From: a virus
Virus record (IMG/VR): IMGVR_UViG_3300020442_003949
Coordinates: 27,013 to 91,012 of that record
Direction: 5' to 3' (one strand)
Length of the DNA: 64,000 bases
Part shown: piece by piece, positions 1-18,025 of the stretch
Layout of the letters: every line of letters begins with the position of its first letter
Position numbering within the stretch: position 1 is the stretch's first letter
The notes under the pieces: generated by a model
What the model was told of the DNA's origin: nothing
The model's input: only the letters and a program-made list of their open reading frames with translations
Database searches by the model: none
Position numbers and translations under genes: made by a program

Positions 1-907
1 CATTTTCTTTCAACACACCAAAAACATAAGCCACATTCTTTTAGCTCTATAGAATCCTTTGCAATTGAATAGTATGTGTAATCTATTCCTAAAAGATTTT
101 CATTCTTATAATCACCTTCACAACTTCTTGTTACGTTAAAGAAATCCATAATATCATAGTTTTTATATTGTTGTACAATCCAATCTTTTTCTATAAGACG
201 CAACGGCTCTAAACACCAAGAAATTCCTTCATGTTTGATGTATGCTAAAGTTTTTAAGTCATGTGTAACATTGTCTCTATTACACATTCTATCTTTAATA
301 TCAAAATCTACAGTAGGATTTTGTGTAGTAGCATTATAAACAGCATTATACTTGTTATAGAATGCCAAATAACTATTAAAGGAAGAAATTAAAACTTGAT
401 CTGGGGATCTATCGCCAACAATATTTCCCACTACACCATGCTCCAACTCAGGCGGTATATAAGTTGTTTCTCTATTATCTATTATATTTGGAAATCTATT
501 CTTAAGCCAATTATACACATTTAACGATACATCACCTTGCCAAGGACGTGTTTTCCAACATCTTTTATATGTAATAACATCAATTTTACATTTATAATTT
601 TTTTCTTGAATTATTGTTGCTAGTAGGTAAGTTAGCATAGCACTATCAGCACCACCACTTAAATTAATCGCAACTTTGTTCCAATTAGGATTTAACGGAA
701 TTGCAACGCCATTTATTAAATGTGTTTGCAAACCTTGCTCTAATAATCGATCCTTAATACTACCATATAGCTTTTCTTTTGCCAAAAAAAAAGCTCATGA
801 TCAGATATATTATTATGTATTCTTTTTGTTTCTTCTTCAATAAATTTAAATTGATCAAAATTATAATTATTATTAAAAATACAAGTTTGATATAATGTAT
901 TATCCAT
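1..907 (-). CDS. QueC-like PP-loop ATPase (7-cyano-7-deazaguanine synthase-like); frameshifted at a T9 run (784-792) and truncated by the window edge
   Basis: Not in the ORF track; translated by hand. ATG at 907 with AAGGA RBS gives MDNTLY...DHELFFW and stops at 740. The -1 frame continues LAKEKLYG...VAINLSGGADSAMLTYLLA...VTRSCEGD...ECGLCFWCVERK to position 1. The SGGxDS PP-loop, TRSC and CxxCxxC are QueC-family-like motifs. Confidence 0.7.
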
Positions 908-909
908 TT

Positions 910-2208
910 TTATCCTTTATTGTAACTATTTATTGGTCTTTTAAGATTTTTAAAATCAGGCACATACCTCACTGCCTTTTTTGGAAACATCGCATATAAT
1001 TCTTCTATCATAATTGACATATGTGGGAATAATCTATCCCAATCAGTTTCTGGTCTTTTGATTTTAAAATATGAAAATGCCATATCATAATGCCATGCTG
1101 TTGTATCAATTATGTTTGTACCGATTAAGTTTTTTATTTTGCTTAAATATCTTATGAAATAATCTAATTTATGTTGTTCGCAAAACTTAATAGCATCATT
1201 TTGATCTTCTTTAAAACGCTTAGGCATTCCTATAATAGTCATTCCCATCTCATTTGCATAGTTAAATGCAAACCTTGTTATTGTATGCCGAAACATTTCT
1301 TTCATCTTCTTTGGTCCTAAAGTATCTAAATAAAATTCTATATCATCTTTAAAATACGGCACACTATATACGTTTAATGTATTAACAATTCTAATATCAA
1401 TATTTTTAAAATCAGCATCTAAAATATAATTCATATTTCGCATAAGCCGATTCCATTGTAAACCATGTCTTATTGCTTCGGCTCTATCTCTTGTTGAATC
1501 TACACTAACATCAAAAACACACTTTATATCTTTGTGTTTATCAAATAAATTTATATAATCATTAAAAACTTTTTCTTTGGTATTGAAATTTGTATGCAAG
1601 AACAAAAAAAGTTGTTTATTAGGAACAATATCTATAATTTGCTCTATAAGCCATAAACTATGTGGATTATATGTAGGCTCTCCTCCTGAAATTATAAAGG
1701 TATACTGTACGTTAGGGTTATATTTTTTGTTTTTTAAATACGTAATAAAGTTTTTTATAGCAGATTCAAACCATTCATCACTAGTACCTACTGTAGGAAT
1801 TCCTATTTCTTTTGCCCAACTTGAACTATCCTTAGGTGCGCAATATACACATTTTAAATCACATGCACTACTAAGATTGATAGTAAATCTTTCAATATAA
1901 TCATCATCTAATAAACTTTTTTTAAAACTTTCATCTAATCTACTATGAAACAAATTTCTATTTTTAAAAAAACTATTAGGCAAGGATTTAGTACAAGTAA
2001 AACAACTTGGCTCTGGTAACTTGTTATGAAGAATCATTGATTCTTTACGACTTTTTAATTCAGGATTATGACATAAAATATTTGGATTGTTAAAATCTTT
2101 TATGTCTAACATAATATCAGTAGTTTTACAACAATTGGTAATACTACCTCGCATAAGTCTTAAATCCATACTGTAGAATAATTCACTACAAATATTCTGT
2201 TTATCCAT
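910..2208 (-). CDS. Radical SAM protein with N-terminal Cys-rich (SPASM/twitch-like) segment
   Basis: CDLKCVYC (CxxxCxxC), SGGEP, HTN, SVDS; N-terminal NCC...CFTC. Confidence 0.9.
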   Translation of the reverse strand: MDKQNICSELFYSMDLRLMRGSITNCCKTTDIMLDIKDFNNPNILCHNPELKSRKESMILHNKLPEPSCFTCTKSLPNSFFKNRNLFHSRLDESFKKSLLDDDYIERFTINLSSACDLKCVYCAPKDSSSWAKEIGIPTVGTSDEWFESAIKNFITYLKNKKYNPNVQYTFIISGGEPTYNPHSLWLIEQIIDIVPNKQLFLFLHTNFNTKEKVFNDYINLFDKHKDIKCVFDVSVDSTRDRAEAIRHGLQWNRLMRNMNYILDADFKNIDIRIVNTLNVYSVPYFKDDIEFYLDTLGPKKMKEMFRHTITRFAFNYANEMGMTIIGMPKRFKEDQNDAIKFCEQHKLDYFIRYLSKIKNLIGTNIIDTTAWHYDMAFSYFKIKRPETDWDRLFPHMSIMIEELYAMFPKKAVRYVPDFKNLKRPINSYNKG

Positions 2209-3571
2209 TTTTTATTCTTGTAAGGTATACATCTTCCACATCATCTATCTGATAATTCTGAAATACATCATTAAAACGTTTTTTAAATAATCTATCAGAA
2301 TATCTTCTATACACAAAAAAAGAACTATACCATTTTGGATCTAATTTTGTTGAATCTATATAATCTTTAATTTCGTCTAATATTTTTATTGCCGATTCAA
2401 TAGGTACGAATGTATCCTTTGATTTTAAATATCCATAGTTATCTTTGTAGTTTACTAAAGTCTTTCTTAAATACTTCTCATACTCTATTATTGCATCCTT
2501 TGTTTCATTGATATCTTCATATACTTCATTCCTAAACTCATGCATTATTAATGATGGATTTATATATTCTGGAGTTTGAACTGGGGCTGCTTTTATATCA
2601 TCAAGAGGCAAAGTTAAAATACTTTCAAATACATTTTTAATATCCATTATTTGATATATTGAATATGTAATAACTCCTACTATCTTGGAATTAGTATTAA
2701 TTTTCCTAAACTTATCTAAATTTGTAGATAATGTATTCCAATCTCCGTCTCGAAAATATCTATAAATATTTGTTCCTGCATCTATGCTTATATTCATAGT
2801 TACTTTTTTAAATTTTGAAAGCAAATCATTAAGGCGATCCATATCAAACTCAGCATTAAAATTTGTATAAAAAAATATGTGTAAATTTTTTGCATTAGGA
2901 TGATGTTGTAATAATTCTAGCGCAAGAAAAAATTGCTGTTGTTTGAGCGGCTCGCCTCCGCTACAATCAAATTGTTCTAAATTAGGAAAATTATCACATA
3001 AATCATTAATTATATTCCTTGTGTCATCTAAACTCAATTTCATTCTTTGATATCTTTCTTTATCCTTAGGCTGATGACGAAGTCCTAATAATTGATAAAT
3101 TAAATTATTAGATAATTCCTTACGATATTTTTCTATTTCTGATTGTAATCCTTTTAGTTTTGTTTCCCAACTACTTGAAAATGTAGAGTCACAATGCAAA
3201 CAAGACATATTACAACTATTATTAAATCTTAATTCAATATGTTTTAATGCTTTATAATCCATTTCTCCTGTTTCAGAATTATAAAATTCTTTACTAAAAT
3301 TTTTACTATAATCAAATCTCATAGATTTTAAATTTACTGCTTCCATTTCTTTACATAAATGACACCCAGCAGGAAATTTTCCGGATTGCAGTTGTTTCCT
3401 ATGATTTCTAAAATTTTCATTATTCCAAAAATCACTAGTCACCTTTCCTTCCAAAATATGCAAAGGGTCAACTTGTGTAGGGCAACTAGTTGCAAATCCG
3501 TTCTTATAGTTAACACCATGTAAGCTATAAAAACAATTAAGACTCATTGTATAATTATCTAATGTATTCAT
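2201..3571 (-). CDS. Radical SAM protein with N-terminal Cys-rich (SPASM/twitch-like) segment
   Basis: CNMSCLHC, SGGEP, YTN, ISIDA; N-terminal C...SC...CHLC. Confidence 0.9.
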   Translation of the reverse strand: MNTLDNYTMSLNCFYSLHGVNYKNGFATSCPTQVDPLHILEGKVTSDFWNNENFRNHRKQLQSGKFPAGCHLCKEMEAVNLKSMRFDYSKNFSKEFYNSETGEMDYKALKHIELRFNNSCNMSCLHCDSTFSSSWETKLKGLQSEIEKYRKELSNNLIYQLLGLRHQPKDKERYQRMKLSLDDTRNIINDLCDNFPNLEQFDCSGGEPLKQQQFFLALELLQHHPNAKNLHIFFYTNFNAEFDMDRLNDLLSKFKKVTMNISIDAGTNIYRYFRDGDWNTLSTNLDKFRKINTNSKIVGVITYSIYQIMDIKNVFESILTLPLDDIKAAPVQTPEYINPSLIMHEFRNEVYEDINETKDAIIEYEKYLRKTLVNYKDNYGYLKSKDTFVPIESAIKILDEIKDYIDSTKLDPKWYSSFFVYRRYSDRLFKKRFNDVFQNYQIDDVEDVYLTRIKNG

Positions 3572-3584
3572 AGGTTTATTGACT

Positions 3585-4670
3585 CTATTCAGTACTTATT
3601 TTAGTAAATTCATTATGATAGGCTTTGTTTTTAGCACAAGTTCGTATACATCTAGAGACGTGCTTATTATGATAAGGATTCCAACTAGATTCTAATACTT
3701 CTGTGTACCAAGGATGAGAAATTATTTCATCTATATTGTAATATATTAAGCTGTTCCAATTTAGATCAAATGAATTAAGTTTATCTAATATTCCATCTTT
3801 ATTTCTTATCGTACTATCCCACAAAAAACAACAAGGCCACACTGTTAAATTACTTGCTATAAAAATTTCACCTTCATGAACAAATTTACAAACAATTGTA
3901 TCTGTTACTTCTTTTATTTGCTCTTCTGATAATTGCTTAGTAGAACTAGATTCTATAAATTTATCTAATTCTTCAATTTCTTTTATCTTACTATGTTCTT
4001 TTTTTCCAGTAGTAGTAATTATATAATTTTCTGTATTGATCTTTTTAGTAGCTTTGTCACGTTTTTGTATATTAGACATCCACTCATTATAGCTATTCCG
4101 CATACCAGTCCTAGTTGAAAAAGTAAAGCCTAATTCTTTTGCACGATTGTATGCAGCATCTAATTCATATTCATTATGATCAAATACAATATAAACCCAT
4201 TGCCCACTTCCTTCACTTGCATTTTCTGCAAATGCAACCATATTACGATCAATTATCTTATATGAAGTATTAACTCGATATATATGATTTGTTTCTTTAA
4301 ATCCATCTACACACCAATGAACATGGACCAACCCAGGCCTTGCTCTAGATATTTCTCCAAGCCGTGCCCACCAGTCTGCACTTTGAATTCCACCATTTGT
4401 ACTAACTTCACAATACGCATTGTTTTCTGTTAAATAATCAATCATATCTACCATTTCAAAGTTTTTTGCAGGATCTCCTAAAACTCCACAAAACTTAAAC
4501 ATTTTACCTTGAATATTTTCTTTTAAAGGAAAGATACGTTGGATTTCTTTAAGTCCAAAACTTTTAATTTTGTATTTTCCTACATTCAGTGTTCTAGCAC
4601 ATCCAGGACATGCTGCATTACAATCGCTAGTAATTTCTAATTCGATTTTTTTAATATTATTTCTAAGCAC
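3585..4670 (-). CDS. Radical SAM protein with C-terminal twitch/SPASM-like domain
   Basis: CNAACPGC, CGVLGDP, STNGG, VDG; C-terminal C..WPCC..CIRTC; GTG start. Confidence 0.9.
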   Translation of the reverse strand: MLRNNIKKIELEITSDCNAACPGCARTLNVGKYKIKSFGLKEIQRIFPLKENIQGKMFKFCGVLGDPAKNFEMVDMIDYLTENNAYCEVSTNGGIQSADWWARLGEISRARPGLVHVHWCVDGFKETNHIYRVNTSYKIIDRNMVAFAENASEGSGQWVYIVFDHNEYELDAAYNRAKELGFTFSTRTGMRNSYNEWMSNIQKRDKATKKINTENYIITTTGKKEHSKIKEIEELDKFIESSSTKQLSEEQIKEVTDTIVCKFVHEGEIFIASNLTVWPCCFLWDSTIRNKDGILDKLNSFDLNWNSLIYYNIDEIISHPWYTEVLESSWNPYHNKHVSRCIRTCAKNKAYHNEFTKISTE

Positions 4671-4695
4671 AAATTATTTACCTTTTCATGATATG

Positions 4696-5775
4696 CTATT
4701 TAAATTGTTCTGAAAATACGTCAAACTCTATGCCACACTTCATACTACAAACCTTTAACCTTCCATTGTTACAACCTGTGATTTTCCAACTACGTTCTAT
4801 ACTATCAAATATACCTGTTTCAAAAACAGCCTTCAATCCATGTTTCTTAACATTAATTGCATCTTTACCGCCAACAGCATTGATAAAGTTCCATATTTGT
4901 TCAACTTTAGGATCTTTGTGCCACCACTTATACATGCGTCCAGCAGTCCAGCAGCAAGGCATAACTAAACCTTCAGCTGTAATAAACAAGCTGCCTTGAT
5001 CTTTTACTTTACAATTGATAGGTACTACATCATAATATTCATCCATACTACCATATTTCTCAATCAATAAATCCTGTCTAGTTAAGGCTTTATTTTGGTA
5101 TATTACAGTTGGCTTTTTAAGTTTTGTAGTTTCTTTTCCATTCCGATTTTTAGCTTGATGTACTTCTTTCTTTTTATTATTTGCTGTAATAAATCTACCT
5201 GTTTTTTTAGGAATAAATCTTTCACATCCCCATTTTTTAGCCAAAGCTTTTGCTTCATCTACTTGATGTTCGTTGTGCTTAAATATTAAAAAATCCCAGC
5301 GAGCTCTGCCGCCTGCGTCAATGAACGCTCGCATATTGCGTTCTACATTATTCCAGACAACACCTTGCCTATACAAATGATTAGTGTCGCTAAGGCCATC
5401 TACGCTGAAAATAACAGCACCCATTTTACCAAAGACTTCAGCCAATTCACGCCACCACGCTTCATCTTTTGCCCCTGCATTTGTGTTCATAGAGAGCCAT
5501 ATTTTGCTGTTATGCTCTCTAAAGTATTTGAATATATCTAGTGTATAACGGGAAACAATAGGATCACCTAGGTTGCCACACATGTACATAGTATCTAACT
5601 GTTTTATAAATTCAGGTTCAAATATACGTTTGCAATCTTCTAAAGTAAGCTCACTAAGATCAATATGAGGATTTAAACCTTCGCCATTCATATTACGATC
5701 ACACATAGGGCAGTTTGCTTGACAATTTTGTGTATTTTCTAAATGAATTGTTTTTATATCGTAGTAATTATACAT
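4696..5775 (-). CDS. Radical SAM protein with C-terminal twitch/SPASM-like domain (paralog of 3585-4670)
   Basis: CQANCPMC, CGNLGDP, NTNAG, SVDG; C-terminal C..MPCC..CSMKC. Confidence 0.9.
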   Translation of the reverse strand: MYNYYDIKTIHLENTQNCQANCPMCDRNMNGEGLNPHIDLSELTLEDCKRIFEPEFIKQLDTMYMCGNLGDPIVSRYTLDIFKYFREHNSKIWLSMNTNAGAKDEAWWRELAEVFGKMGAVIFSVDGLSDTNHLYRQGVVWNNVERNMRAFIDAGGRARWDFLIFKHNEHQVDEAKALAKKWGCERFIPKKTGRFITANNKKKEVHQAKNRNGKETTKLKKPTVIYQNKALTRQDLLIEKYGSMDEYYDVVPINCKVKDQGSLFITAEGLVMPCCWTAGRMYKWWHKDPKVEQIWNFINAVGGKDAINVKKHGLKAVFETGIFDSIERSWKITGCNNGRLKVCSMKCGIEFDVFSEQFK

Positions 5776-6631
5776 GCAAGTATTCTATCATTTCTTTATC
5801 GAGATAAATCATATCTTTTAGTTGATCTAACTTTTGTTCGAACTCTTTAAGATCTTCTAAATTGTCGTGATATAATTCTCTAGCAATCTCTTTATTCTTA
5901 CTAGTAATTTTAAGGTCAAGTGGTTTATTAATCAACCTAATTACTTCCTCAACATATAGATCAAACCTATTATCAGTGTCTTCGTCAAAACTTAAATCAC
6001 AGTCAAAAATAAATCCGTATTCTTTTAGTTTTTTATACATACCTGGATATCCGTAATTAAGGAAAGGCTTTCCGCTTAGTAAGGGTCTAAATGTTTTTTC
6101 TGATATAAAAAAGTAAGGAACGCCTGTAACACTACAGGTCTCTATTTGAAATTCAAATAAGCTACAGTACCATTCTTCTGGTAGGTTTCTTTTGACATCG
6201 TAATGACTTTTTACATTATGTTCTGAAGGTAAGGCAACTTCAGGCCACAAACTGTAAATACCATAATCTAATACTTTTGCGTTTTTTAGTTTAGATATTA
6301 ATGCAGTTCTAGTAGTACTATGTGCTCCATTTAGAGATATAAACTTCCAGTCACATCTAGGTGTATAATCTACTAAGGGTCTTTTATACATCCAATACAA
6401 AGGAAAAGTCCTAATATTGTCTGACTGCGAATCTACGCTCGAACAATAAATTGTGCTATTCTTAATTACTTCGGGTTTTACATTATACCTTACAGTTAAT
6501 TCTTCTATAGGTTCTGTAGAAATATCTATGTATGTGTTAATTTCAAAAAATCTGTTAAATAAATCTTGTCGAGATAAAAATTTTTTATGCAAGCAACAAC
6601 TATTTAATCCTAACTCCCTAAGCATTTTCAT
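5768..6631 (-). CDS. Putative glycosyltransferase (GT-B, GT10-like 'EK' motif)
   Basis: ET...FISEKTFRPL...KPF...LKEYGF, paralogous to the C-terminus of 11735-13024. Start moved to ATG 6631 to reduce overlap with the upstream gene. Confidence 0.45.
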   Translation of the reverse strand: MKMLRELGLNSCCLHKKFLSRQDLFNRFFEINTYIDISTEPIEELTVRYNVKPEVIKNSTIYCSSVDSQSDNIRTFPLYWMYKRPLVDYTPRCDWKFISLNGAHSTTRTALISKLKNAKVLDYGIYSLWPEVALPSEHNVKSHYDVKRNLPEEWYCSLFEFQIETCSVTGVPYFFISEKTFRPLLSGKPFLNYGYPGMYKKLKEYGFIFDCDLSFDEDTDNRFDLYVEEVIRLINKPLDLKITSKNKEIARELYHDNLEDLKEFEQKLDQLKDMIYLDKEMIEYLHV

Positions 6632-7160: not shown

Positions 7161-7175
7161 AAATTAATTCCATAT

Positions 7176-7706: not shown

Positions 7707-7785
7707 TTATCTAATCCTATATCACTAAGTTTTTTCATTTAGAAATTCTGCACTTAAAATATTAGTATCATATTTAATTGTTGTA

Positions 7786-10517: not shown

Positions 10518-11733
10518 TTCTAGTATTGCCGTAATGAATTACAATATAATTAGGATCATTAAATTTACGCCACGGATCAACAACAATAGAACCTACTGGT
10601 ATATTGCAGTATAAAGAATCATGTTGTTCTTGATTCATATACGAATAGGTAGTAGTAGCTGAATGAGCAAGCAAAACTACACAAGGTGAAGTAGGAACAA
10701 AATTGTCGCCTGTTTGAGGATCAATGTATTGTGGTGTAATACCGTATTCTTCGCAATAATGGCCAATTAATATAGAGTAACTTCCTTCTTCGTACGGCAC
10801 GTTAGGTTTATATGCTTTACCATGAATTAAAATAGGAAATCCGGATTTTTTTGATTCCTGCACTAATTTGCCAGCTAAATTCTTTGCTTGTATTTCTCTA
10901 GCTGTCATTATAGCATCAAACAAATCATACCCTAGCCCTAAATCGTCAGCCATGTATCGTAACGCAATATTATCTCTAGGATGACAAGCTCCGCCGTCGC
11001 CCATGCCTGCTTTCATATATTGCGGACCCATTATACGCCAGGTAGATTTAGCTAAAGCATCTGTTACAATATCAACATTTATATTTCCTTGTATTTCTGC
11101 TACATCTTGAATCATATTCACTAGAGATAATTTTGCTGAAATAAAAGTATTGTAAAATACTTTTATACATTCGCATTCGTCCCAAGTGCCAACAATATAA
11201 CGTGGCTCATTCTGCATTATAGTCTTATAAAATTCAACTAATTTTTTTGCAGGACCTGTTTCTTTGCCGTCTTCGGTTCCTATCATTACCATTTCAGGAT
11301 TTACCATGTCCCACGCTACACTGCCCATAGCAATAAGATAAGGATTATACACAAATTCACAGTTTGTAACTAAAGGTGCTAACTCTCTGCGAACGGTTCC
11401 TGGCAAGACTGTTGATATTAGAACTAGGAGTTGAGATTTTTTCATATAATGATTTGCTTCTTTTAGCACAGATTTTGCTATATCATATGAAAAATCTTTT
11501 GGAGGTAAATCTACGATAGGTGTTTTGCCATCGTATCTTGTATCGTGTGGTGTAGGTACTGCTACAAATACAATATCTTTTCCTTCAACTACTTCTTTGA
11601 TTGATTCAACAACTTTGACGTTATTTGACTTAACAGATTGTACATCATAACCATCAACTTGATAACCATTTTTTGCTATTTCAGTAGCACAAGGCATACC
11701 TAATTTTCCTAAACCAATATATCCAATCTTCAT
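10510..11733 (-). CDS. ugd: UDP-glucose/GDP-mannose 6-dehydrogenase family protein
   Basis: IGLGKLG Rossmann motif, FVAVPTP, STVLPGT, YNP, catalytic K (IKVFYN) and C (GGACHPRD), AYKPN, DPWR. Confidence 0.9.
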   Translation of the reverse strand: MKIGYIGLGKLGMPCATEIAKNGYQVDGYDVQSVKSNNVKVVESIKEVVEGKDIVFVAVPTPHDTRYDGKTPIVDLPPKDFSYDIAKSVLKEANHYMKKSQLLVLISTVLPGTVRRELAPLVTNCEFVYNPYLIAMGSVAWDMVNPEMVMIGTEDGKETGPAKKLVEFYKTIMQNEPRYIVGTWDECECIKVFYNTFISAKLSLVNMIQDVAEIQGNINVDIVTDALAKSTWRIMGPQYMKAGMGDGGACHPRDNIALRYMADDLGLGYDLFDAIMTAREIQAKNLAGKLVQESKKSGFPILIHGKAYKPNVPYEEGSYSILIGHYCEEYGITPQYIDPQTGDNFVPTSPCVVLLAHSATTTYSYMNQEQHDSLYCNIPVGSIVVDPWRKFNDPNYIVIHYGNTRNV

Positions 11734-11734
11734 C

Positions 11735-13024
11735 TTATTCCTTATTAAAAAAGTCTAGTAAAATTGGTATTAAATCTGTCTGATAATACCAATTTTCAAC
11801 ATTCTTTACCGTATATAAATTATGTAATAAATCTGGTAGCATTTCATATAAAATTGATACCCATTGATTATCTGGTATACCATACAACCTGTCAAATTCT
11901 TTTAAAACCTTCCTAAGCCTTTGATGATTGTCATCTATTTCATCATAACTGTGATCTATCCATTTATCAAACATTCTATATCCATAACTTCTTAATGCAG
12001 CTACATTACCTTTTGGACCAGCAACAATAAAAGGCTGTAGCATTCCAAAAGGTTTAAATGACTTTTCTGTTATAAATGGAACTTCTACCCTATCTTCCCA
12101 TGTTTCACTCACTAATTGAAAATAACTTTTTAAAGTATGTATCCAACCCACTCTATCAGCTAAATTGATATCTAAATCTAAATTGTTGTGATTTTTACTC
12201 ATATCATTTGCTTCAATTATTTTACAATGAATATCTCCAATTTTATGTAATTGTTCAAATTCTTTTTTATATTCGGAAAAATCCTCTGCCCAAGAATAAT
12301 TTCTTAATTGTTCTGCATCACAAGGAGCACATTCGGTAAATCTACCTAAACTATATAATGCTCTATCATATCTATGATGCATTTGATGAGCTACTATTAC
12401 AACTCTAGCCTTTCTAGGCCTCCTATTATAATTTAATGATTTATACGGAACACGTTCTTTTCTTATAATAGAATGAATTTTTTCTTGCTGATTTTTATTT
12501 GATATCGGATCATCCCATTGTATAAACCTTTCTAAATGTCTACCAGCAACTATATTATAAGCATTTTTAGTTCCTAGCTTACCTTTATACTCGCCTACTG
12601 CATGTGCTCCTGTTATTATAGTAATATTACTAGGTACAGTAAATAAAGCATTACAAAAATTCCCTATATGTGGATCTGCATAACCATCAAATGCGTTACA
12701 TTCTGTGTCATCACATATTAGCCAGTGTACTAAACCATTTTCACTGTCTTCTTTTATCCGTTTTGACATAGGAAAAACACCTGGATTATAATCCAGGGAT
12801 TGCCAATCACCGAAAATGAAATCTAATTCACGGCGAGCATGAGAAAAAATAACATACTTGCTGCCAACAGGTAAGTCAAAAATTGTTTTATAAGTGTATA
12901 AACTTAATTTATCATAACTCTCTTTAAACATGCTTAGTGTACATATGGGTTTCACATCATTTCGAGGTATACCTACAAAAAGTTCTTTTCCTATTTTTGT
13001 AATTAGAAAAACAATTTCTGTCAT
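11735..13024 (-). CDS. Putative glycosyltransferase (GT-B, GT10-like 'EK' motif)
   Basis: LNYNRRPR, LVSET...FITEKSFKPF...QPFIVAG...LRSYGY..F...IDHSYD. Confidence 0.5.
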   Translation of the reverse strand: MTEIVFLITKIGKELFVGIPRNDVKPICTLSMFKESYDKLSLYTYKTIFDLPVGSKYVIFSHARRELDFIFGDWQSLDYNPGVFPMSKRIKEDSENGLVHWLICDDTECNAFDGYADPHIGNFCNALFTVPSNITIITGAHAVGEYKGKLGTKNAYNIVAGRHLERFIQWDDPISNKNQQEKIHSIIRKERVPYKSLNYNRRPRKARVVIVAHQMHHRYDRALYSLGRFTECAPCDAEQLRNYSWAEDFSEYKKEFEQLHKIGDIHCKIIEANDMSKNHNNLDLDINLADRVGWIHTLKSYFQLVSETWEDRVEVPFITEKSFKPFGMLQPFIVAGPKGNVAALRSYGYRMFDKWIDHSYDEIDDNHQRLRKVLKEFDRLYGIPDNQWVSILYEMLPDLLHNLYTVKNVENWYYQTDLIPILLDFFNKE

Positions 13025-14427
13025 TTTTTATTATCCCAATAAAAATCATACATTTCAGGAAAAGTTTGTAAAAAATTTGTATCTCTACGCCTATCATGCT
13101 CATCTACAAAAATTATAAAATCTTTCCTGTGTTGTTGTAAATCAACACTGTCAAAATTATTATCTTTAAATATATCAACAATCCTTTGAAATTTTGCAAG
13201 TTCCCATGAATAGAAACCGTAATTTTCTTTTCCTCTTATATTTCTATACTCAAGATTATTTTGCATAAAATCTCTATATTTCGTAAAATGCTCTGACCAA
13301 TTTTTGTATCCTATGAATATAGACTGATGTTTTGGCCAACGTAAGTAAGGTGTATCTAATATAATTGGAATTGCTTTATTTGTTCCACCAAATTCTAATT
13401 TAAGTTCTAAAATATCTTTCAAAAATTTATCAAAAGAAAATATGCTTAAAACATTGAACGTGCTTGTGCATGTAAATGTACAATTTGGAACTTCTATTAG
13501 TATTCTTCTAATATTATGTAACCATTTATTGTAATCTAGTCCATATCTAATATAATTTGCTTGATCGCCGTATGCTTCTGCACTTGTAAAAATTTTTAAT
13601 TTTTTTACTTTCCTTTGCCCACCAATAATTTTTATTTTTTCTACAAATTTATTCATTATTTCATCTGTAGGACAAAGATTACTATTGATAGAAAATTCTA
13701 AATCAGGCCTTGGATTCAAAATTAAATCATCAAGAATTTTAAATGTATCTTTTGTTAAAAGAGGTTCTCCTCCTGTAATCCTGAAATGCTTTAGATCGTT
13801 TGCTAATGTAGGCCACCATTTCCAAAAAGCTTCTACGTAAGGATTATGTTCTTTATTAGGAATAGGCATGTGATCATGCCTTTTTAACCAACTTAAATCA
13901 TGCAAATTTGAACTAGTAGGATAAGGCCCATATTCATTTATTTCTTCCATCCATTTACTACTTACTTGCGGAGAACAATAACTACATTTAAAATTACAAA
14001 CACTACTAAAACTAACTTCTAAATAAGATGGATTTACATTCTTTTTCCAATGAGAATTTATAATGTCATTTACATAAGGTTGTGCCCACCATTCGTAAGA
14101 CTTAAACATTCTATCACTTAATATAGAATCATTATTGTCCTCTACTTTCCAACAATAATCGCACTCACTAGGCCTTTTACCTTCTAACATTTCTTTTCTT
14201 GCAAGTTTTTTCCAATAAGTGTTATGCAATGCACTTGGGTGATGATTAACTTCGTCTAATGGTATTTTATGCGGTTCAGGATGATGACAACTGTGAGTTA
14301 ATCCATTATGTAAATGTAATGTTACTTGCTTCCATTTTGCTGTACAAAAAGTAGGAGATATATTATCTAAAACCGATTCTTTATAATTTTTTACTTTCTG
14401 CAAAAAATTGTTTTCTTCAATACTCAT
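13021..14427 (-). CDS. Radical SAM protein with N-terminal twitch/SPASM-like domain
   Basis: CNFKCSYC, TGGEP, NSN; N-terminal FCTAKW...SCHH...ECDYCW. Confidence 0.92.
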   Translation of the reverse strand: MSIEENNFLQKVKNYKESVLDNISPTFCTAKWKQVTLHLHNGLTHSCHHPEPHKIPLDEVNHHPSALHNTYWKKLARKEMLEGKRPSECDYCWKVEDNNDSILSDRMFKSYEWWAQPYVNDIINSHWKKNVNPSYLEVSFSSVCNFKCSYCSPQVSSKWMEEINEYGPYPTSSNLHDLSWLKRHDHMPIPNKEHNPYVEAFWKWWPTLANDLKHFRITGGEPLLTKDTFKILDDLILNPRPDLEFSINSNLCPTDEIMNKFVEKIKIIGGQRKVKKLKIFTSAEAYGDQANYIRYGLDYNKWLHNIRRILIEVPNCTFTCTSTFNVLSIFSFDKFLKDILELKLEFGGTNKAIPIILDTPYLRWPKHQSIFIGYKNWSEHFTKYRDFMQNNLEYRNIRGKENYGFYSWELAKFQRIVDIFKDNNFDSVDLQQHRKDFIIFVDEHDRRRDTNFLQTFPEMYDFYWDNKK

Positions 14428-15347
14428 TCTGGATCAATTACTTTCTTAGATATCCGTGTAGGATTCATATAAACTGTTTTAAAAAATTTACTTTGCTTAA
14501 AATTTAACGGCTCTCTCGCAATTGGAAGATTCAACTGTTTAATTAACTGTTCCCCAGTAATATGTATTTGATTTTCAAGTTGAGCTAATGAAAATTTTTC
14601 ATATTCTGTAAACCATAAATTGTTCAAATATTGAAAATCTCTTACATTTACGTAATTCCAATTAGAACACATAGTTTTAAACAGACCTTCTCTAGCGCCC
14701 ATAATAGCCCAATTACCATTTTCAACATCTGCACCAATCATCAACCATATATATAGTCTGTGTAAATTTTTCCAGTGATTTTCTTTAAACTGATCTAATG
14801 TAGGTTTAACACCTTGATCAAGTGCCATTTTTACGCCTTCGCGAAATCCTGCTCGCCAAGCTTGATGTGGAGTTGCATTATTATATATATCAGAAAAACA
14901 AGAATTCATCTGTATATATTCTACATCCCAACAAAAATCTACTTGAGCATGTGGATTATCTTTATCTGCATTCTCATGAGTTTTCATATTTAAAACAAAT
15001 TCTTTAGGCCAACATTTTACTCCACCATTACCATACATAAGTCCATTTATTACATTATAGCCGCACCATGAAATAACTTTATTTTCTAATTCTATATGTT
15101 CTTCAAAATCAATTTCCTGCGTTAAAAAATGTTCTCTTATACGATTATCACCATCAATTGTTACAAATCTATCTGTTTCAGATAGATTTGCACAGGCCTT
15201 GTGCGCTGAATCAGAACCTTCTACACCATGCACTCGTTTTGCCCAAGGAATTTTTTTGCACAAATCAGCGTAATTTTGTTCTGCGTTAGGCTCGTCATAA
15301 CTTAGAAAAATAACATCATAATCTAAAACTTTAAATTTAGTAGACAT
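14424..15347 (-). CDS. Glycosyltransferase (GT-A like; paralog of the C-terminal domain of 8859-10517)
   Basis: YDVIFLSYDE, RVHGVEGSDSAH, TIDGDN (DxD), YGNGGVKCWP, AWRAGFRE; start placed at ATG 15347. Confidence 0.65.
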   Translation of the reverse strand: MSTKFKVLDYDVIFLSYDEPNAEQNYADLCKKIPWAKRVHGVEGSDSAHKACANLSETDRFVTIDGDNRIREHFLTQEIDFEEHIELENKVISWCGYNVINGLMYGNGGVKCWPKEFVLNMKTHENADKDNPHAQVDFCWDVEYIQMNSCFSDIYNNATPHQAWRAGFREGVKMALDQGVKPTLDQFKENHWKNLHRLYIWLMIGADVENGNWAIMGAREGLFKTMCSNWNYVNVRDFQYLNNLWFTEYEKFSLAQLENQIHITGEQLIKQLNLPIAREPLNFKQSKFFKTVYMNPTRISKKVIDPE

Positions 15348-15900
15348 ACCCGACTCTTTCATAATTGTAATCAAAAATTTTATTTGTATAAATGCTAATC
15401 AAACTACCTTCTTTGTTATGTTCAAATTCTTCAGAAAAATCTATAATGAAATAATGTTTTTTTATTAGTTGTTCTAAGTCAACTTGTAATTGTTTATAAA
15501 GAATATTTGGATTATTAAATTCCGTTACACTAAAAAATAGTTGGAAATTATCTAAAGCAATATTTGTTTTACACTCTACTTCTAATTGATCATTAATCAG
15601 GAATTTCCAACATACTTCATCACAACTTTGAATTATTGTAATTCCAGATCTATCAATATTTTGTGGAATTTGGTAAAGAATTTGATTTATATTTTTAGAG
15701 AAAACATCTATTTCATTTTTCTTTTTAAATTCATATATATTTTTTGTTTCATTAAATTCTACAAAAAATTTGTTTGATGATTCTTTTCCTTCATGAATTA
15801 ATTTTACATCTTCTATATCTACCTCAACAAAATTCTCCAAAGGCTGAATATTAGTAATAGAAAGAATTTTTCCATTGTCTGGATTAAATTTTACAAACAT
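15337..15900 (-). CDS. Hypothetical protein
   Basis: 187-aa ORF tightly packed in the operon. Confidence 0.7.
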   Translation of the reverse strand: MFVKFNPDNGKILSITNIQPLENFVEVDIEDVKLIHEGKESSNKFFVEFNETKNIYEFKKKNEIDVFSKNINQILYQIPQNIDRSGITIIQSCDEVCWKFLINDQLEVECKTNIALDNFQLFFSVTEFNNPNILYKQLQVDLEQLIKKHYFIIDFSEEFEHNKEGSLISIYTNKIFDYNYERVGYVY

Positions 15901-15902
15901 TA

Positions 15903-16727
15903 TTATATTCCTAAATACTTTTCATACGTACTTACAATACTTTCAGTTGCAAAATCATTATTTACATAATGGAATATTCCATCTTGCAAATAATTACCAA
16001 TATACAATTTCAAGTCATTTGTAAGATATACTGGAACTTTATCTTGCCAATTATCTTTAACTGATTGCCAATCTTGAACATAGGGTTTCATATGAACAAA
16101 TTTTAAAAAATCTACTTTTCTATTTGTTATTTCCGTATCATTATTTAGAATTTTACTTGCAATTGCACAAGTTAAATCCATACTAGGTTGCTTTGGATAA
16201 AATTCTTTACAATATTGACCATAAAAAAGTTCCCAATTTTTTGAAATTAATTCTACCCAAGTAAAAAAATCTTGCGAAGACGGACTTTTCTTAAAATAAT
16301 GCAAACCGTTATATAAATTAGGTAAATTATTATATGTAAATGATTTCCTATAATAATCATTAGTGATTAATGTAGATCTATAAGTAAAAACCTTAGATAA
16401 GTAAAATAAATTATAATTTTGAAAAAAATTCCACCACGCATCTAACTGATTTAAAACTAAAATATCAGTATCTAATACAATTGTTTCGTCATAAGGACTA
16501 TTGTGATAAATTTTCCATCTATTAAGCACATCATATCTTGAATTATCATGCTCTATCCAAGAAGGTTTTATTACAAAATCAAAAATGCTTTTATATTTTT
16601 TTGGAACTCTTGAATTAGTGATTATTGATATTGGAATTTCTGAATTAATCTTTAAACTAACAGCAGCCAAGCAAGCCTGTTTGACATAAGAATTACCTTT
16701 AGCATAAAATACATATCCTTTAGACAT
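15903..16727 (-). CDS. Glycosyltransferase (GT-A, GT8-like)
   Basis: SPYDETIVLDTD (DxD), NGLHYFKKS, FVHMKP; ATG 16727 with AAGGA RBS. Confidence 0.65.
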   Translation of the reverse strand: MSKGYVFYAKGNSYVKQACLAAVSLKINSEIPISIITNSRVPKKYKSIFDFVIKPSWIEHDNSRYDVLNRWKIYHNSPYDETIVLDTDILVLNQLDAWWNFFQNYNLFYLSKVFTYRSTLITNDYYRKSFTYNNLPNLYNGLHYFKKSPSSQDFFTWVELISKNWELFYGQYCKEFYPKQPSMDLTCAIASKILNNDTEITNRKVDFLKFVHMKPYVQDWQSVKDNWQDKVPVYLTNDLKLYIGNYLQDGIFHYVNNDFATESIVSTYEKYLGI

Positions 16728-17622
16728 TTTTAAATTCCTTATCAATGCATCTATTTAAACTAAACTTATTCATTACATGAACTGATAAACCATTTGTAAC
16801 TGCTAGTGTATATTCTCCTAAATAATCTTCTTTTTCTAACAAGAATGTTATTTTTTGGTCTTTAATATTGTAACAGATATCTTTATCTGTAGTATAGTAT
16901 AACCTTCCTGGCATAGATTTTGCGAAATCACCTTCTGTATAACCATTCATAATATGAATAGCAATACTAAATGCATGATCATTTCTAAAATAAGATTGAT
17001 TAATTTGGAAAATTGATCTATAATGATTCCAGTTTTCTTGTATGTGTTGAACTAAATCAAAAAATATTCTATTTTCTTTAGATTTCCGAAAAAATACTAC
17101 AGTAGCCCAATAAAATTTAACTCCTATGTCATTTATATACGTAAATTCATTAGATTTTCTGAATAAAGTTAAATCACATGCATCATGATAAATTAAAAAA
17201 TTATTATTTTGCTGAAAACACTGTAAATATTGATCATTACATAAAACAATATCTGTGTCTAATAATAATGTTTCATCATACGGAGAAATATCATAAGCTT
17301 TTGATCTTAATTGATTTTTAAATTGTAATTTAATTCTAGTTAGGGTGCCATCTCTATAATTTTTATAAAAATGATTTTCTGTTGTGCTTAATACCGTATT
17401 TTCATTATTATTTTTTTCCGACCAAACTACTTCTATAATATTATCAAAAACTTCCTCTGCATCTTGATATTGTTTTTTTAGATATTCTAAACTATCTGTA
17501 ACTACTGTTGTAGGTAAATTAAGGTAATATTTTACTTTTTTTGCAAGAAAATATGCCTGTTTTAAATAATCTATTTTTGCATTATTCCTTGCAAAAAGTA
17601 AAATGCCCGCAGATTTATTCAT
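16720..17622 (-). CDS. Glycosyltransferase (GT-A, GT8-like; paralog of the neighbouring gene)
   Basis: SPYDETLLLDTD, ATVVFFRKS, RNDHAFSIA, HVMNK. Confidence 0.65.
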   Translation of the reverse strand: MNKSAGILLFARNNAKIDYLKQAYFLAKKVKYYLNLPTTVVTDSLEYLKKQYQDAEEVFDNIIEVVWSEKNNNENTVLSTTENHFYKNYRDGTLTRIKLQFKNQLRSKAYDISPYDETLLLDTDIVLCNDQYLQCFQQNNNFLIYHDACDLTLFRKSNEFTYINDIGVKFYWATVVFFRKSKENRIFFDLVQHIQENWNHYRSIFQINQSYFRNDHAFSIAIHIMNGYTEGDFAKSMPGRLYYTTDKDICYNIKDQKITFLLEKEDYLGEYTLAVTNGLSVHVMNKFSLNRCIDKEFKNV

Positions 17623-17966
17623 AAATTAACTAAATTTTCTACAGTTCTTTGTTTTTTAATCTGACTATATTCAGTGAGATATTTATTTGTTGCTCGAAAG
17701 TAAACATCTAAGATATCTTTAAAAAAAGACTTTAGATCTTCTATATATATTGGTATATTGTTATCATCTACTAAAATTAATTCATCTTGATTATTACGAA
17801 TCATTATATCACAAAAAGAAATTAATTCTTTTGAAACTGTAAATTGACTACCATTTGTATAATATATAGAATTTTGAGCGAATTGCTCTTGAAATATTTT
17901 TGTTTGATTGTGAAGTGTAACCATGTAATTTGAAAAAGCTAATGCTTTCTCTAATTTTTCATCCAT
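17619..17966 (-). CDS. Hypothetical protein (first gene of the modification operon)
   Basis: 115-aa ORF with AGGAG RBS, downstream of TATAAATA. Confidence 0.8.
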   Translation of the reverse strand: MDEKLEKALAFSNYMVTLHNQTKIFQEQFAQNSIYYTNGSQFTVSKELISFCDIMIRNNQDELILVDDNNIPIYIEDLKSFFKDILDVYFRATNKYLTEYSQIKKQRTVENLVNL

Positions 17967-17987
17967 ACTTCTCCTATAAATGTATTT

Positions 17988-17995
17988 TATTTATA
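17988..17995 (-). promoter_or_regulatory. T4-type late promoter TATAAATA heading the enzyme cluster
   Basis: Exact TATAAATA in the intergenic gap, about 20 nt upstream of ATG 17966; gp55 is encoded in the window. Confidence 0.6.
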
Positions 17996-18025
17996 AAAGA
18001 GAAATAAAGATGAAAATAACATTGA

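Follow-up and report, generated by a model that had tools for sequence, protein, structure and literature searches.

The DNA analysed here (the window, 64,000 nucleotides, bases 27013-91012 of a 91-kb contig) belongs to an uncultured marine T4-like giant phage whose portal protein is closest to those of PA5oct and Atu_ph07. The contig amounts to about 23% of the phage genome, which is the share in hand. Positions 1-17966 of the window read as 19 minus-strand ORFs, most of which overlap their neighbours by a few bases (Table 1; genes are named below by their lower coordinate). An earlier sequence-only reading had described this region as a complete 18-kb cluster of co-oriented enzyme genes, with five radical SAM genes and three pairs of glycosyltransferase (GT)-like paralogs, running in the same direction as the fibre and baseplate genes. 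The co-oriented enzyme genes are real, all three paralog pairs (15903/16720, 14424/C-terminus of 8859, and 11735/C-terminus of 5768) were recovered by BLASTP within the window, and the fibre and baseplate genes, as far as position 51308, are indeed transcribed from the island's strand. The island sits within the phage's host-recognition region. The cluster does not, however, end at window base 1: the window's left edge cuts it, and 16 more same-strand genes occupy a further 13 kb leftward, reaching contig base 13828. The full island has 36 genes over about 31 kb and, while five radical SAM genes do lie in the window (910, 2201, 3585, 4696 and 13021), it holds ten.

The island consists of two parts, a phage-specific head module and a variable tailoring module. 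The head module comprises a 115-aa leader, a GT8-like pair, a 187-aa protein and a GT-A protein. The tailoring module carries a second GT-A domain, GT-B transferases, a UDP-glucose dehydrogenase (UGDH), a PP-loop ATPase, a small kinase-like protein and the ten radical SAM enzymes, along with methyltransferase-like proteins and several oxygenase-like ones with an HxD..H pattern; to these the extension left of the window adds a TauD dioxygenase, a fatty-acid-desaturase-like protein, a nitroreductase, a second methyltransferase and a B12-binding radical SAM enzyme. Membrane segments were predicted in one of the 36 island proteins and not in the other 35, and no flippase, polymerase, polyprenyl-phosphate transferase, lipid-carrier, ligase or export gene was found among them. 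Within the block, signals for sigma-70-like promoters or terminators did not exceed chance.

Table 1. Features of the island within the window and immediately upstream of it.
Position	Strand	Feature	Evidence or remark
1..785	-	PP-loop ATPase, QueC-like by motif	SGGADS and C-terminal CGLCFWC (CxxCxxC)
910..2208	-	Radical SAM, N-terminal-twitch-related, below family cut-off	PF04055, 39 bits
2201..3571	-	N-terminal-twitch radical SAM enzyme	NF033640, 191.9 bits; CX3CX2C at residue 120
3585..4670	-	Short radical SAM enzyme, paralog of 4696	PHROG 21308, 9e-11; CX3CX2C at residue 17
4696..5775	-	Short radical SAM enzyme, member of the conserved radical SAM trio	PF04055
5768..6685	-	GT-like protein, C-terminus paralogous to 11735	BLASTP 4e-6 to the C-terminal region of 11735
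6618..7160	-	Cupin/2OG-oxygenase-like protein, by motif	HxD...H pattern (IHRD ... HLH)
7176..7706	-	Small kinase-like protein, by motif	HTDPLLSN (HxDxxxxN), VIDPD
7786..8055	-	Conserved 89-aa protein, no assigned function	Copies in loci L020 and L023
8015..8878	-	Rossmann-like, methyltransferase-like candidate, conserved core	By motif
8859..10517	-	552-aa protein, repeated N-terminal half-domains and C-terminal GT-A-like domain	BLASTP to 14424
10510..11733	-	UDP-glucose 6-dehydrogenase, accessory	PF03721, PF00984, PHROG 9148 (1e-94)
11735..13024	-	GT-B fold glycosyltransferase-like protein	AF2 model, pLDDT 86.9
13021..14427	-	N-terminal-twitch radical SAM enzyme, core	NF033640, 331.7 bits
14424..15374	-	GT-A fold glycosyltransferase-like protein	AF2 model, pLDDT 92.4
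15337..15900	-	187-aa head-module protein, no assigned function	G001 homolog 37% identical
15903..16745	-	GT8-like glycosyltransferase, head module	Paralog of 16720
16720..17622	-	GT8-like glycosyltransferase, head module	Motif and weak profile evidence
17619..17966	-	115-aa leader gene, no assigned function	First island gene in relatives
17988..17995	-	TATAAATA, T4-late-promoter-like motif	21 nt before the leader ATG at 17966
18026..18952	-	308-aa Ser/Thr-rich structural-looking protein, candidate acceptor	Own TATAAATA at 18976-18983

When the GT-like genes were checked against known folds, AlphaFold models placed 14424 among GT-A and 11735 among GT-B proteins. The model of 14424, the island's most conserved gene, matched GT-A enzymes with a Foldseek probability of 0.99 and a VIA Z of about 10 over residues 13-165. 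Its top Foldseek matches were the glycocin S-glycosyltransferases ThuS and SunS, and further structural matches included ppGalNAc-T and the viral proteins PBCV-1 A64R and Mimivirus R699; several of these (ThuS/SunS, ppGalNAc-T and A64R) glycosylate proteins or peptides, which we counted for fibre glycosylation. Within the 14424 family D76 is invariant and D74 nearly so. The family comprises 1264 clusters at 50% identity, has no Pfam model, and is joined to GT-B domains (bona fide GT28/EryCIII-type ones) in proteins of 715-809 aa. Its paralogous domain at the C-terminus of 8859 (BLASTP 6e-28; weak PF00535 match, 18.8 bits) is kept in the cultured Ralstonia phage RsoM2USA and in bacteria, and 8859 as a whole has a 76% identical homolog in the related phage G001. 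The 11735 model matched GT-B enzymes over its full length (Foldseek E 3e-5, probability 0.99-1.0), with glycogen synthase, OtsA, WaaG (including that of P. aeruginosa), BshA and TarM at the top, and 11735 and 5768 have an (I/F)(T/S)EK(S/T)F(K/R)P motif in common. The assignment of 15903 and 16720 as putative GT8-like enzymes comes from an invariant P-x-DET...D-x-D motif and from a profile search whose sole match was glycogenin-1 (E 0.22). Additionally, 15903 matches PHROG 1903, and PF01501 occurs in 27% of the members of the Atlas named cluster nearest to 16720.

A CX3CX2C motif is present in ten of ten radical SAM enzymes of the island. Gene 910, with the motif at residue 116, scores 142.5 bits against NF033640, for which the cut-off is 170 bits. 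The two short enzymes 3585 and 4696 are paralogs (BLASTP 4e-30), and 4696 has homologs in G001 (64% identical) and in Bdellovibrionota loci (42-47%), while the core enzyme 13021 is 39% identical to RsoM2USA ORF349, 42% to its G001 counterpart and 44-46% to those of Bdellovibrionota. Short paralogs and N-terminal-twitch enzymes alike have peptide or protein maturases as their next-best NCBIfam matches (SkfB, PapB, mycofactocin and anaerobic sulfatase maturases, for instance), all far under the family cut-offs, and the B12-binding enzyme resembles, among others, RiPP C-methyltransferases. The substrates of SPASM/twitch radical SAM enzymes are more often peptides or cofactors than sugars, which counts against fibre glycosylation.

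The sequence-only reading had further proposed a uronic-acid-containing glycan, and assigned a methyltransferase, an oxygenase, a kinase-like protein and a PP-loop ATPase. The UGDH was confirmed: it shares 47-62% identity with the HTVC008M and cyanophage Bellamy enzymes (62% with the latter), and its GLGKLG and GGACHPRD motifs suggest a functional enzyme. However, the uronic acid step is accessory; the parts of G001 and RsoM2USA that were compared yielded no UGDH. The PP-loop protein carries both of its expected motifs; its gene body extends to window position -27, and its N-terminal 55 codons (740-907) lie in a different frame, across a T9 run at about 787-795. It gave a weak match to PHROG 1550 (QueC-like, E 3e-4) and none in Pfam and PDB searches. 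The remaining three assignments (8015, 6618 and 7176, respectively) retain their motifs, but searches of Pfam and PHROG and a PDB profile search gave nothing informative. Gene 8015 has homologs in G001, RsoM2USA and Bdellovibrionota loci with an invariant GW...DxD...NTSCEH pattern, 6618 has a 63% identical homolog in phage locus L033, and 7176 has none among the loci compared. Copies of 7786 (56-69% identical) lie downstream of the 8015 homolog in L020 and L023. For 15337 no Pfam or PHROG family was matched; RsoM2USA ORF351 has the same size and position.

The island was also proposed to be driven by a late promoter, on account of an exact TATAAATA at its head. This sequence is the T4 late promoter, which depends on the sigma factor gp55. 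It is present at the proposed position on the minus strand, and the phage encodes a gp55 homolog. As an 8-mer, TATAAATA is rarer than expected in the window (6 copies versus 19.7 expected), so its mere presence is no more than chance would give; the informative feature is where it lies. The shorter ATAAATA occurs 27 times in the contig, and 8 of the 27 copies fall 12-33 nt before a same-strand start, a zone covering 1.4% of the sequence. Five of the eight starts belong to structural genes and one to the island leader, where the spacing equals that at baseplate and fibre genes. Similar to T4 late transcription, then, there is an exact motif before the leader, enrichment before structural genes and a gp55 homolog; unlike it, at least four relatives have sigma-70-like promoters at the head. 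In these four (L019, L021, L026 and L032), TTGAC(A/C)-N15-18-TATAAT precedes the leader instead of the late-type motif, so late timing and co-expression with fibres are not conserved. TAAATA-type motifs are retained in L019 and L021 by the genes immediately before the leader, one of which is the homolog of 18026.

The proposed synteny with fibre genes is borne out by related phages. The head module directly follows fibre genes in 16 of 17 phage-type loci, and does so as well in G001 and RsoM2USA (ORF354-347), the latter being the sole cultured phage in which the core was found; it occurs in none of the 47 bacterial-type loci. The leader is the first island gene in G001, RsoM2USA (ORF354) and 11 more loci, and homologs of 16720 are found in phage loci only, with fibre genes upstream in 16 of 17. 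These phages were sampled from soil (Ralstonia), freshwater and the sea, presumably from unrelated hosts, which favours an acceptor intrinsic to the phage over a host-specific one. Nevertheless, the synteny may mirror common descent or a hot spot for accessory genes. Comparison with G001 shows that paralogs are gained and lost to an extreme degree between close relatives. The 308-aa protein 18026 has a Ser plus Thr content of 20%, the top of its neighbourhood. Its homologs, in which a C-terminal E(N/Q)VxGT(I/L)T motif leads into a tail rich in S, T and P, stand directly before the island in RsoM2USA (ORF355), in L019 and L021 and, as two copies, in G001. In RsoM2USA, ORF361, ORF359 and ORF356, encoded just upstream, were identified as virion proteins by mass spectrometry (PMC8504454).

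Homologs of the tailoring module are found in Bdellovibrionota chromosomes (rpoB lies 30 kb from one such locus, in G010), at 45-67% identity for the tailoring enzymes. A 380-aa radical SAM enzyme (contig 21660-22802) is 63-67% identical, a twitch enzyme (contig 25577-26980) 58-61%, and 14424, the C-terminus of 8859, and 8015 are 32-45% identical. The bacterial clusters resemble the island in their orthologous enzymes and in tandem arrays of NF033640 paralogs; they differ from it in being chromosomal and in lacking the GT8 pair, leader and fibre genes. Because these chromosomes lack fibre genes, a phage fibre is not the native substrate of the radical SAM trio or of the GT-A and 8015 proteins, whose counterparts there are 35-67% identical. 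The bacterial genes lie among three canonical GT2 genes, together with a cupin and a QueC-family PP-loop gene to whose product the phage PP-loop protein shows no detectable similarity. No flagellin or Wzx gene adjoins the bacterial clusters.

PBCV-1 and Mimivirus encode host-independent cytoplasmic glycan synthesis for virion surface proteins, including nucleotide-sugar enzymes. The island is linked to them through the structural matches of 14424 to A64R and R699; these are eukaryotic viruses, however, and the likeness is at fold level, with 7-15% identity. To our knowledge, radical SAM arrays are not a feature of the giant-virus machineries. The host-recognition cluster known from pelagimyophages and cyanomyophages offers another parallel. 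In these marine T4-like phages, a large and hypervariable stretch surrounding the tail-fibre genes gathers GTs and radical SAM cassettes that vary between close relatives (PMC7029224, Zaragoza-Solas et al. 2020). Both have GT8-type glycosyltransferases, UGDH and radical SAM cassettes near tail fibres. In contrast, BLAST-level overlap with the Bellamy and HTVC008M sugar modules is limited to UGDH, the present phage is giant and its island far richer in radical SAM enzymes, and the conserved head module is not described in PMC7029224. In mycobacteriophages, GTs glycosylate the C-termini of capsid and tail-tube subunits, with the acceptors proven by mass spectrometry (Freeman et al. 2023, as summarised in PMC12619734). 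There, as here with the S/T/P-tailed candidate preceding the enzymes, GT genes adjoin structural genes; unlike the present island, the mycobacteriophage systems involve one to a few GT genes and no radical SAM tailoring.

Our best reading of the island, which we favour tentatively and at somewhat less than even odds, is glycosylation of virion fibres. From the observed gene content, folds, synteny, promoter motif, enzyme solubility and bacterial homologs we infer its acceptor, the order of its steps and all of its chemistry. In the cytoplasm, sugars from host nucleotide sugars and from phage-made UDP-glucuronate would be attached to a phage protein, most plausibly the upstream Ser/Thr-rich 308-aa protein or the fibres, and radical SAM, oxygenase, methyl and phosphoryl tailoring would then diversify the growing glycan. 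If this is true, the receptor-binding apparatus would wear a variable sugar coat. An unlikely alternative is that, during infection, the lipid A-core or another inner-leaflet glycolipid of the host is the target of the soluble GT8-like, GT-B (WaaG-like) and kinase-like enzymes. The cell surface would thereby change, for instance so that superinfection is blocked or progeny do not adsorb to debris. GT8 and WaaG-type enzymes and small LPS kinases are soluble or peripheral and work at the cytoplasmic face, which counts for a host target; since LPS-core enzymes are soluble as well, the scarcity of membrane proteins is compatible with one. Remodelling of the host envelope would also fit P. aeruginosa WaaG among the 11735 matches, the early-type head promoter of the four relatives, the GT2 neighbours of the bacterial homologs, and the O-chain modification that PMC7029224 proposes, with no tests reported, for pelagimyophage GT8, UGDH and radical SAM genes. 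Against it, the head module is kept across soil, freshwater and marine phages, whose hosts should differ in core structure; the head promoter of this phage is late-type; and the carrier, flippase, ligase and export genes are missing from the island, as is Wzx near the bacterial clusters.

We regard it as rather improbable that the radical SAM enzymes, oxygenases and methyltransferases modify the polypeptide of a fibre or 18026-family protein directly, in a RiPP-like manner, with glycosylation as one of several decorations; crosslinks, epimerisation, hydroxylation or C-methylation, as the chemistry involved, are equally doubtful. The next-best NCBIfam matches to peptide and protein maturases, the B12-binding enzyme's resemblance to RiPP C-methyltransferases, the Asp/Arg-hydroxylase-like cupins and TauD enzyme of the island, and ThuS and SunS as best matches of 14424 all point this way. 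Those maturase matches fall far below cut-off, though. Neither a precursor peptide nor a domain for leader recognition (RRE) turned up, the bacterial homologs have GT2 genes as neighbours and no evident peptide gene nearby, and the paralog arrays look like glycan-cluster diversification. Also improbable, and slightly more so, is that the infected cell makes a small glycoside or a nucleoside-like molecule, comparable in type to aminoglycosides or nucleoside antibiotics. Twitch and B12 radical SAM enzymes, GTs, a dehydrogenase, methyltransferases, a kinase-like protein, a PP-loop amidotransferase-type enzyme and a nitroreductase do recall aminoglycoside and nucleoside clusters, the island enzymes are soluble, and close homologs occur in predatory Bdellovibrionota; genes for "antibiotic synthesis" have been speculated on in a cyanophage (PMC12801897). 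Yet the island shows no scaffold-forming enzyme, transporter or resistance logic, its head module is tied to fibre genes and stands in a late-type promoter context here, and the extreme turnover of paralogs suits surface diversification better. DNA hypermodification, in which the GTs and the QueC-like PP-loop enzyme would yield glycosylated or 7-deazaguanine bases, we consider very improbable. In its favour are the QueC-like Cys motif, a FolE gene 23 kb upstream on the other strand, and known cases of DNA hypermodification by virus GTs (Pyle et al. 2024, as cited in PMC12619734). No TGT or DpdA was found in the 91-kb contig, however, FolE belongs to a separate module with a sigma-70-like early promoter, and the PP-loop protein shares no detectable similarity with the bacterial QueC-family protein. 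The island is moreover embedded in structural genes, and its bacterial homologs accompany GT2 enzymes, which speaks for glycan over DNA as the substrate.

The right-hand part of the island had been described in the sequence-only reading as a complete 18-kb cluster. The block itself is real, with 19 co-oriented minus-strand ORFs in window 1-17966, most of them with overlaps of a few bases, but it is not complete, because the window edge cuts it and 16 further genes continue on the same strand to contig base 13828 (contig positions are counted from the first base of the contig), giving an island of 36 genes. Within the window, the five radical SAM genes and one UDP-glucose dehydrogenase (UGDH) gene that had been proposed were borne out by Pfam, PHROG, and NCBIfam, and the three proposed pairs of glycosyltransferase (GT)-like paralogs were recovered by all-against-all BLASTP (15903 and 16720, 14424 and the C-terminus of 8859, and 11735 and the C-terminus of 5768; window genes are named by their start coordinates). 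Motifs are the sole evidence for labelling window genes as a methyltransferase, an oxygenase, and a kinase. The left extension adds five radical SAM enzymes, including a B12-binding one, together with a nitroreductase, a methyltransferase, an Asp/Arg-hydroxylase-like cupin, a TauD dioxygenase, and a fatty-acid-desaturase-like protein. Five small ORFs in this extension carry an SDR-like TGxxxxIG motif, a sulfotransferase-like TRTGST motif, and two HxD..H oxygenase-like patterns; if the latter mark O2-dependent oxygenases, these would adjoin ten O2-sensitive radical SAM enzymes. The far end of the island abuts a convergent gene with a major tropism determinant N-terminal (Mtd_N) domain, which carries its own copy of the T4-late-promoter-like 8-mer TATAAATA, and with fibre genes at the other end, receptor-binding-type genes thus flank the enzymes on both sides.

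Features of the contig, by position
Feature	Coordinates	Strand	Remarks
Plus-strand module (L002)	contig 250-4778	+	left of window; SbmA/BacA, Bmp-family binding protein, 2OG oxygenase, GTP cyclohydrolase I (FolE)
Mtd_N protein, 486 aa	contig 12371-13831	+	converges on island end
Five small ORFs	contig 15436-18113 and 24991-25584		left extension; motifs seen by eye only
Radical SAM, 380 aa	contig 21660-22802
Twitch radical SAM	contig 25577-26980
PP-loop gene, SGGADS body	window 1-785	-
PP-loop gene, N-terminal ORF	window 740-907	-	55 codons
Gene 8859	window 8859-10517	-	552 aa
Ser/Thr-rich candidate acceptor	window 18026-18952		directly upstream of island; own TATAAATA; Ser+Thr 20%
Giant single ORF, 5,505 aa	window 25319-41836	-	between baseplate wedge gene and fibre genes
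gp55 late sigma factor homolog	window 51384-52166

Predicted membrane segments are absent from 35 of the 36 island proteins and present only in the terminal desaturase-like protein, with unannotated ORFs assessed by a hydropathy scan and not by a family search. No lipid-carrier (polyprenyl-phosphate) transferase, flippase or ABC exporter, or polymerase was found among the 36 proteins. The pathway therefore appears to be cytoplasmic, and the integral membrane proteins that characterize a Wzx/Wzy- or ABC-dependent surface polysaccharide locus are missing from the island.

The window covers bases 27013-91012 of the contig (91,012 bp, IMG/VR), which CheckV estimates to be 23% complete, so that the phage genome is likely several hundred kb in length. 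The G+C content is about 30%. Besides the gp55 homolog, the products of the window include wedge and hub proteins of a T4-type baseplate, fibres, a portal, and gp46/47-like nuclease subunits. The portal shares approximately 51% identity with its counterparts in the giant phages PA5oct and Atu_ph07 and their relatives, and megablast found no match to the 18 kb in the phage collection. The giant ORF has a partial, 48% identical homolog in the related phage contig G001 and is weakly similar to ORF361 of the cultured Ralstonia giant phage RsoM2USA; the ORF361 protein exceeds 288 kDa and was detected in virions by mass spectrometry (PMC8504454).

Synteny with fibre genes, a check proposed for the cluster, held across related phages. 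The 53.8-kb contig G001 has the same slot, in the order giant protein, fibres, a 30-kb island, and then convergent Mtd_N, DUF2201, and MoxR genes; its island holds about 12 radical SAM genes and lacks a UGDH, and relative to the island described here the ends are conserved and the middle is reshuffled. RsoM2USA is the sole cultured phage found with the family of 14424. Its ORF354-347, directly after giant-protein and fibre-like genes, form a minimal island in the order leader, GT8-like pair, small unknown, GT-A, a single N-terminal-twitch radical SAM, second GT-A, and 8015 homolog. Mass spectrometry has identified the products of ORF361, 359, and 356, encoded immediately before it, as virion proteins (PMC8504454). 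Among species-representative genomes, a scan located 80 loci, including 17 on phage contigs and 47 others with enough upstream sequence. The 17 phage loci carry the GT8 pair, with fibres upstream in 16, while the GT8 pair, the leader, and fibres are all absent from the 47 non-phage-type loci. GT genes adjoin structural genes, as in a virion-glycosylation locus of the mycobacteriophage or chlorovirus type, in this phage, G001, RsoM2USA, and 16 of the 17 loci. Many of the 17 phage contigs were mis-binned into metagenome-assembled genomes (MAGs). Giant-phage contigs with fibres and island (L017/L025 on the 335-kb PBPT01000016.1, L019/L020, L021, L031, and L033) stand in public MAGs labeled Neomarinimicrobiota, Rickettsiales, Bifidobacterium, Fischerella, and Haliscomenobacter, and these labels are probably binning errors.

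The soluble pathway, the conservation of the head module (leader, GT8-like pair, small unknown, and GT-A 14424), and the Ser/Thr-rich family encoded upstream lead us to favour, tentatively and at rather less than an even chance, virion glycosylation followed by tailoring. The enzymes would glycosylate either the 18026 protein or the fibres, and the putative glycan would then be tailored by radical-SAM, oxygenase, methyl, and phosphoryl steps. Members of the 18026 family, RsoM2USA ORF355 among them, have in common an E(N/Q)VxGT(I/L)T motif at the C-terminus and a tail rich in S/T/P. Remodelling of the host LPS core by soluble enzymes seems unlikely to us; modification of the host O-chain was the guess offered for pelagimyophage host-recognition clusters, in which GT8s, UGDH, and cassettes of radical SAM genes had been noted (Zaragoza-Solas et al., PMC7029224). 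The head module is conserved in phages from soil, freshwater, and sea, which argues for an acceptor intrinsic to the phage. The radical SAM enzymes might instead act directly on the fibre protein, which we consider quite unlikely, and the chance that the island product is a soluble metabolite is slimmer still. DNA hypermodification is very improbable, as TGT is absent from the contig: PF01702 (DpdA/TGT) had no match in these 91 kb, which represent about 23% of the genome. A FolE gene is present, but in a separate module with an early-type promoter.

Virus-encoded virion glycosylation is known in chloroviruses, mimiviruses, and mycobacteriophages. To our knowledge, a battery of radical SAM enzymes occurs in none of these systems. 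The island would thus be a putative new, radical-SAM-rich form of virus-encoded glycosylation. If the product decorates fibres, sugar chemistry would add another source of variation in host range and immune evasion among the abundant phages of the ocean. Glycosylation of mycobacteriophage virions is described as established (Freeman et al. 2023, as cited in PMC12619734), and the moraphages, an aquatic giant-phage lineage, are reported to have four core GT families (PMC12619734). As RsoM2USA is a cultured phage with a minimal core (ORF347-355), the question is directly testable.

Many of the 47 non-phage loci are Bdellovibrionota chromosomes, in which the tailoring genes have strikingly close homologs. 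The 380-aa radical SAM protein is 63-67% identical to its Bdellovibrionota counterparts and the twitch enzyme 58-61%, followed by 13021 (44-46%), 4696 (42-47%), and 14424, the 8859 C-terminus, and 8015 (32-45%). In one genome, a homolog and rpoB lie 30 kb apart on the same contig. At locus L085, the genes flanking the homologs encode three canonical GT2 enzymes, a QueC-family PP-loop protein, a cupin, and an amine oxidase. Of 121 sampled Bdellovibrionota genomes, 26 had proteins scoring above the cut-off of the NCBIfam N-terminal-twitch radical SAM model NF033640, often encoded in tandem arrays of five to seven genes, against none of 14 control genomes. Such paralog arrays (for example G055:C4:2575-9905, G037:C1:2382985-2402698, and G009:C9:77432-99809) mirror the expansion in the phage. 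No Wzx flippase genes were found near the bacterial homolog clusters, and a flagellin-glycosylation island was rejected as their identity, since flagellin genes are found either on separate contigs or at distances above 50 kb. With a head that is phage-only and tied to fibres, and tailoring genes that have bacterial homologs, the island comprises two modules, one phage-specific and the other common to a cellular pathway, and the chromosomal link in Bdellovibrionota offers a cellular system for study. Rhodobacterales chromosomes (L044, L047, L058, L060, L061, L089, and others; Ruegeria, Sulfitobacter, Tateyamaria, and Cribrihabitans) carry a lone GT-A homolog of the 14424 family at 35-40% identity, with no island radical SAM genes within 10 kb.

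The proposed GT folds were recovered on AlphaFold models for 14424 (GT-A) and 11735 (GT-B). The 14424 model (pLDDT 92.4), built from 54 family members, retrieved GT-A enzymes first in Foldseek (probability 0.99-1.0, E ~1e-4), including ThuS/SunS, RmlT, WrtF, TarP, ppGalNAc-T, and PBCV-1 A64R, and VIA-align matches, among them B4GALNT1 and a Leptospira GT, reached Z 9-10 over residues 13-165 with an rmsd of ~3 Å across ~140 residues, nucleotidyltransferases being nearly equal at Z 8.7. In the DxD of the family (motif IDGDN), D76 is invariant and D74 nearly so among the 54 members. Against Pfam GT2 (PF00535; cut-off 23.3 bits), 8859 scored 18.8 bits and 14424 had no match; the kinship of 14424 to GT2 is one of fold and not of Pfam membership. 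The 14424 family comprises 1,264 clusters at 50% identity in a representative search and, in a word-indexed search, at least 7,996 matching proteins, has no Pfam model, and includes members fused to GT28/EryCIII-type GT-B domains; this large, uncharacterised family is a possible source of new enzymology. In 8859, the N-terminal 330 residues hold two internal repeats whose unit of ~110 aa is similar to the beginning of the GT-A domain (...PYEIFIIDT.EQYE.AL...), and its RsoM2USA and bacterial counterparts consist of the C-terminal domain alone. The 11735 model (pLDDT 86.9) matched GT-B enzymes across its full length, namely glycogen synthase (E 3e-5, probability 1.0) and also OtsA, WaaG, BshA, and TarM (350-490 columns). 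Genes 15903 and 16720 have no Pfam match; PF01501 occurs in 27% of members of the nearest named Atlas cluster, and a five-sequence profile retrieved glycogenin-1 chains as its sole, weak match (E 0.22). Given that match and the P-x-DET...D-x-D motif, which is invariant in the five aligned sequences and places DxD behind a hydrophobic strand, we label this pair GT8-like only. PDB searches with single sequences of 16720 and 11735 returned only noise, and profile searches with the 14424, 11735, and 8015 families were uninformative.

Each of the ten radical SAM proteins has exactly one CX3CX2C motif, and eight exceed the PF04055 gathering score (29.5 bits). Of the other two, 13021 scores 27.5 bits to PF04055, yet 331.7 bits to NF033640 (curated cut-off 170 bits), and 3585 is assigned solely via PHROG 21308 and paralogy to 4696. 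The ten fall into four NF033640-related proteins, three short ones (320-360 aa), two further related ones, and one B12 type. Gene 2201 (191.9 bits) and the twitch gene at the left of the window edge (412.5 bits) also pass the NF033640 cut-off, and 910 (142.5 bits) lies below it. The twitch gene at contig 25577-26980 has Pfam SPASM at residues 12-97, N-terminal to its radical SAM domain at 217-312, and a single-sequence PDB search with the twitch radical SAM gave only noise. NF033640 is a second large, uncharacterised family that could hold new enzymology. One speculative and somewhat unlikely reading is that the twitch and short radical SAM arrays form an uncharacterised class tailoring protein-linked glycans or the fibre polypeptide, which giant phages and predatory Bdellovibrionota would swap and shuffle for hypervariable surface chemistry at prey or host contact. 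If the arrays do tailor contact surfaces, they would provide a new enzymatic route to receptor-binding diversity, beside fibre swapping and diversity-generating retroelements.

The exact TATAAATA reported at 17988-17995 is on the coding strand, 21 nt 5' of the leader ATG, and so has the placement of a late promoter (about 10-30 nt before a late gene in a gp55-encoding phage). Overall, the 8-mer is rarer than chance (6 copies versus 19.7 expected). Its ATAAATA core lies 12-33 nt before a same-strand start in 8 of 27 contig copies (~0.4 expected): five structural starts (gp6-like wedge, fibre and virion genes, and the Mtd_N gene), the island leader, and two small ORFs in the left module. The left-hand plus-strand genes FolE and, further to the right, MoxR and VWA have TTGAC(A/C/T)-N17-TATAAT-like promoters, unlike the late-type motifs of the structural genes, and sigma-70-like sites and terminators inside the island are not above shuffled expectation. 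The position of the core, the contrast with the left module, and the lack of an internal excess make a late-type promoter at the island head a reasonable reading of the sequence in this phage. The late promoter did not, however, extend to relatives as a conserved trait: the leader gene of L019, L021, L026, and L032 is preceded by a sigma-70-like -35/-10 promoter, with TAAATA-type motifs kept at the genes just upstream in L019 and L021 (one an 18026 homolog), and G001 and L017 have only GAATAA(A/G) at that position. Timing is therefore of little weight for the family as a whole.

The UGDH has a three-domain architecture: it matches PF03721 (61 bits) and PF00984 (59.6 bits), with its C-terminal domain at 24.1 under a cut-off of 30, and has both GLGKLG (NAD-binding GxGxxG) and GGACHPRD (catalytic Cys). 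The Bellamy/HTVC008M sugar module (methyltransferase, carbamoyltransferase, NadE-like, UGDH, and GT) was considered as a counterpart and rejected, UGDH alone being common to both. The cupin-like 6618 and contig 21145-21657 genes have no detectable relationship. Orthology of the phage PP-loop protein to the QueC-family protein of the bacterial cluster was not supported, as the two showed no similarity, and a PDB search with the single PP-loop sequence gave only noise. The two parts of the PP-loop gene are in different frames that meet at a run of nine T (window ~787-795), a break which may reflect an error in sequencing, phase variation, or programmed slippage.
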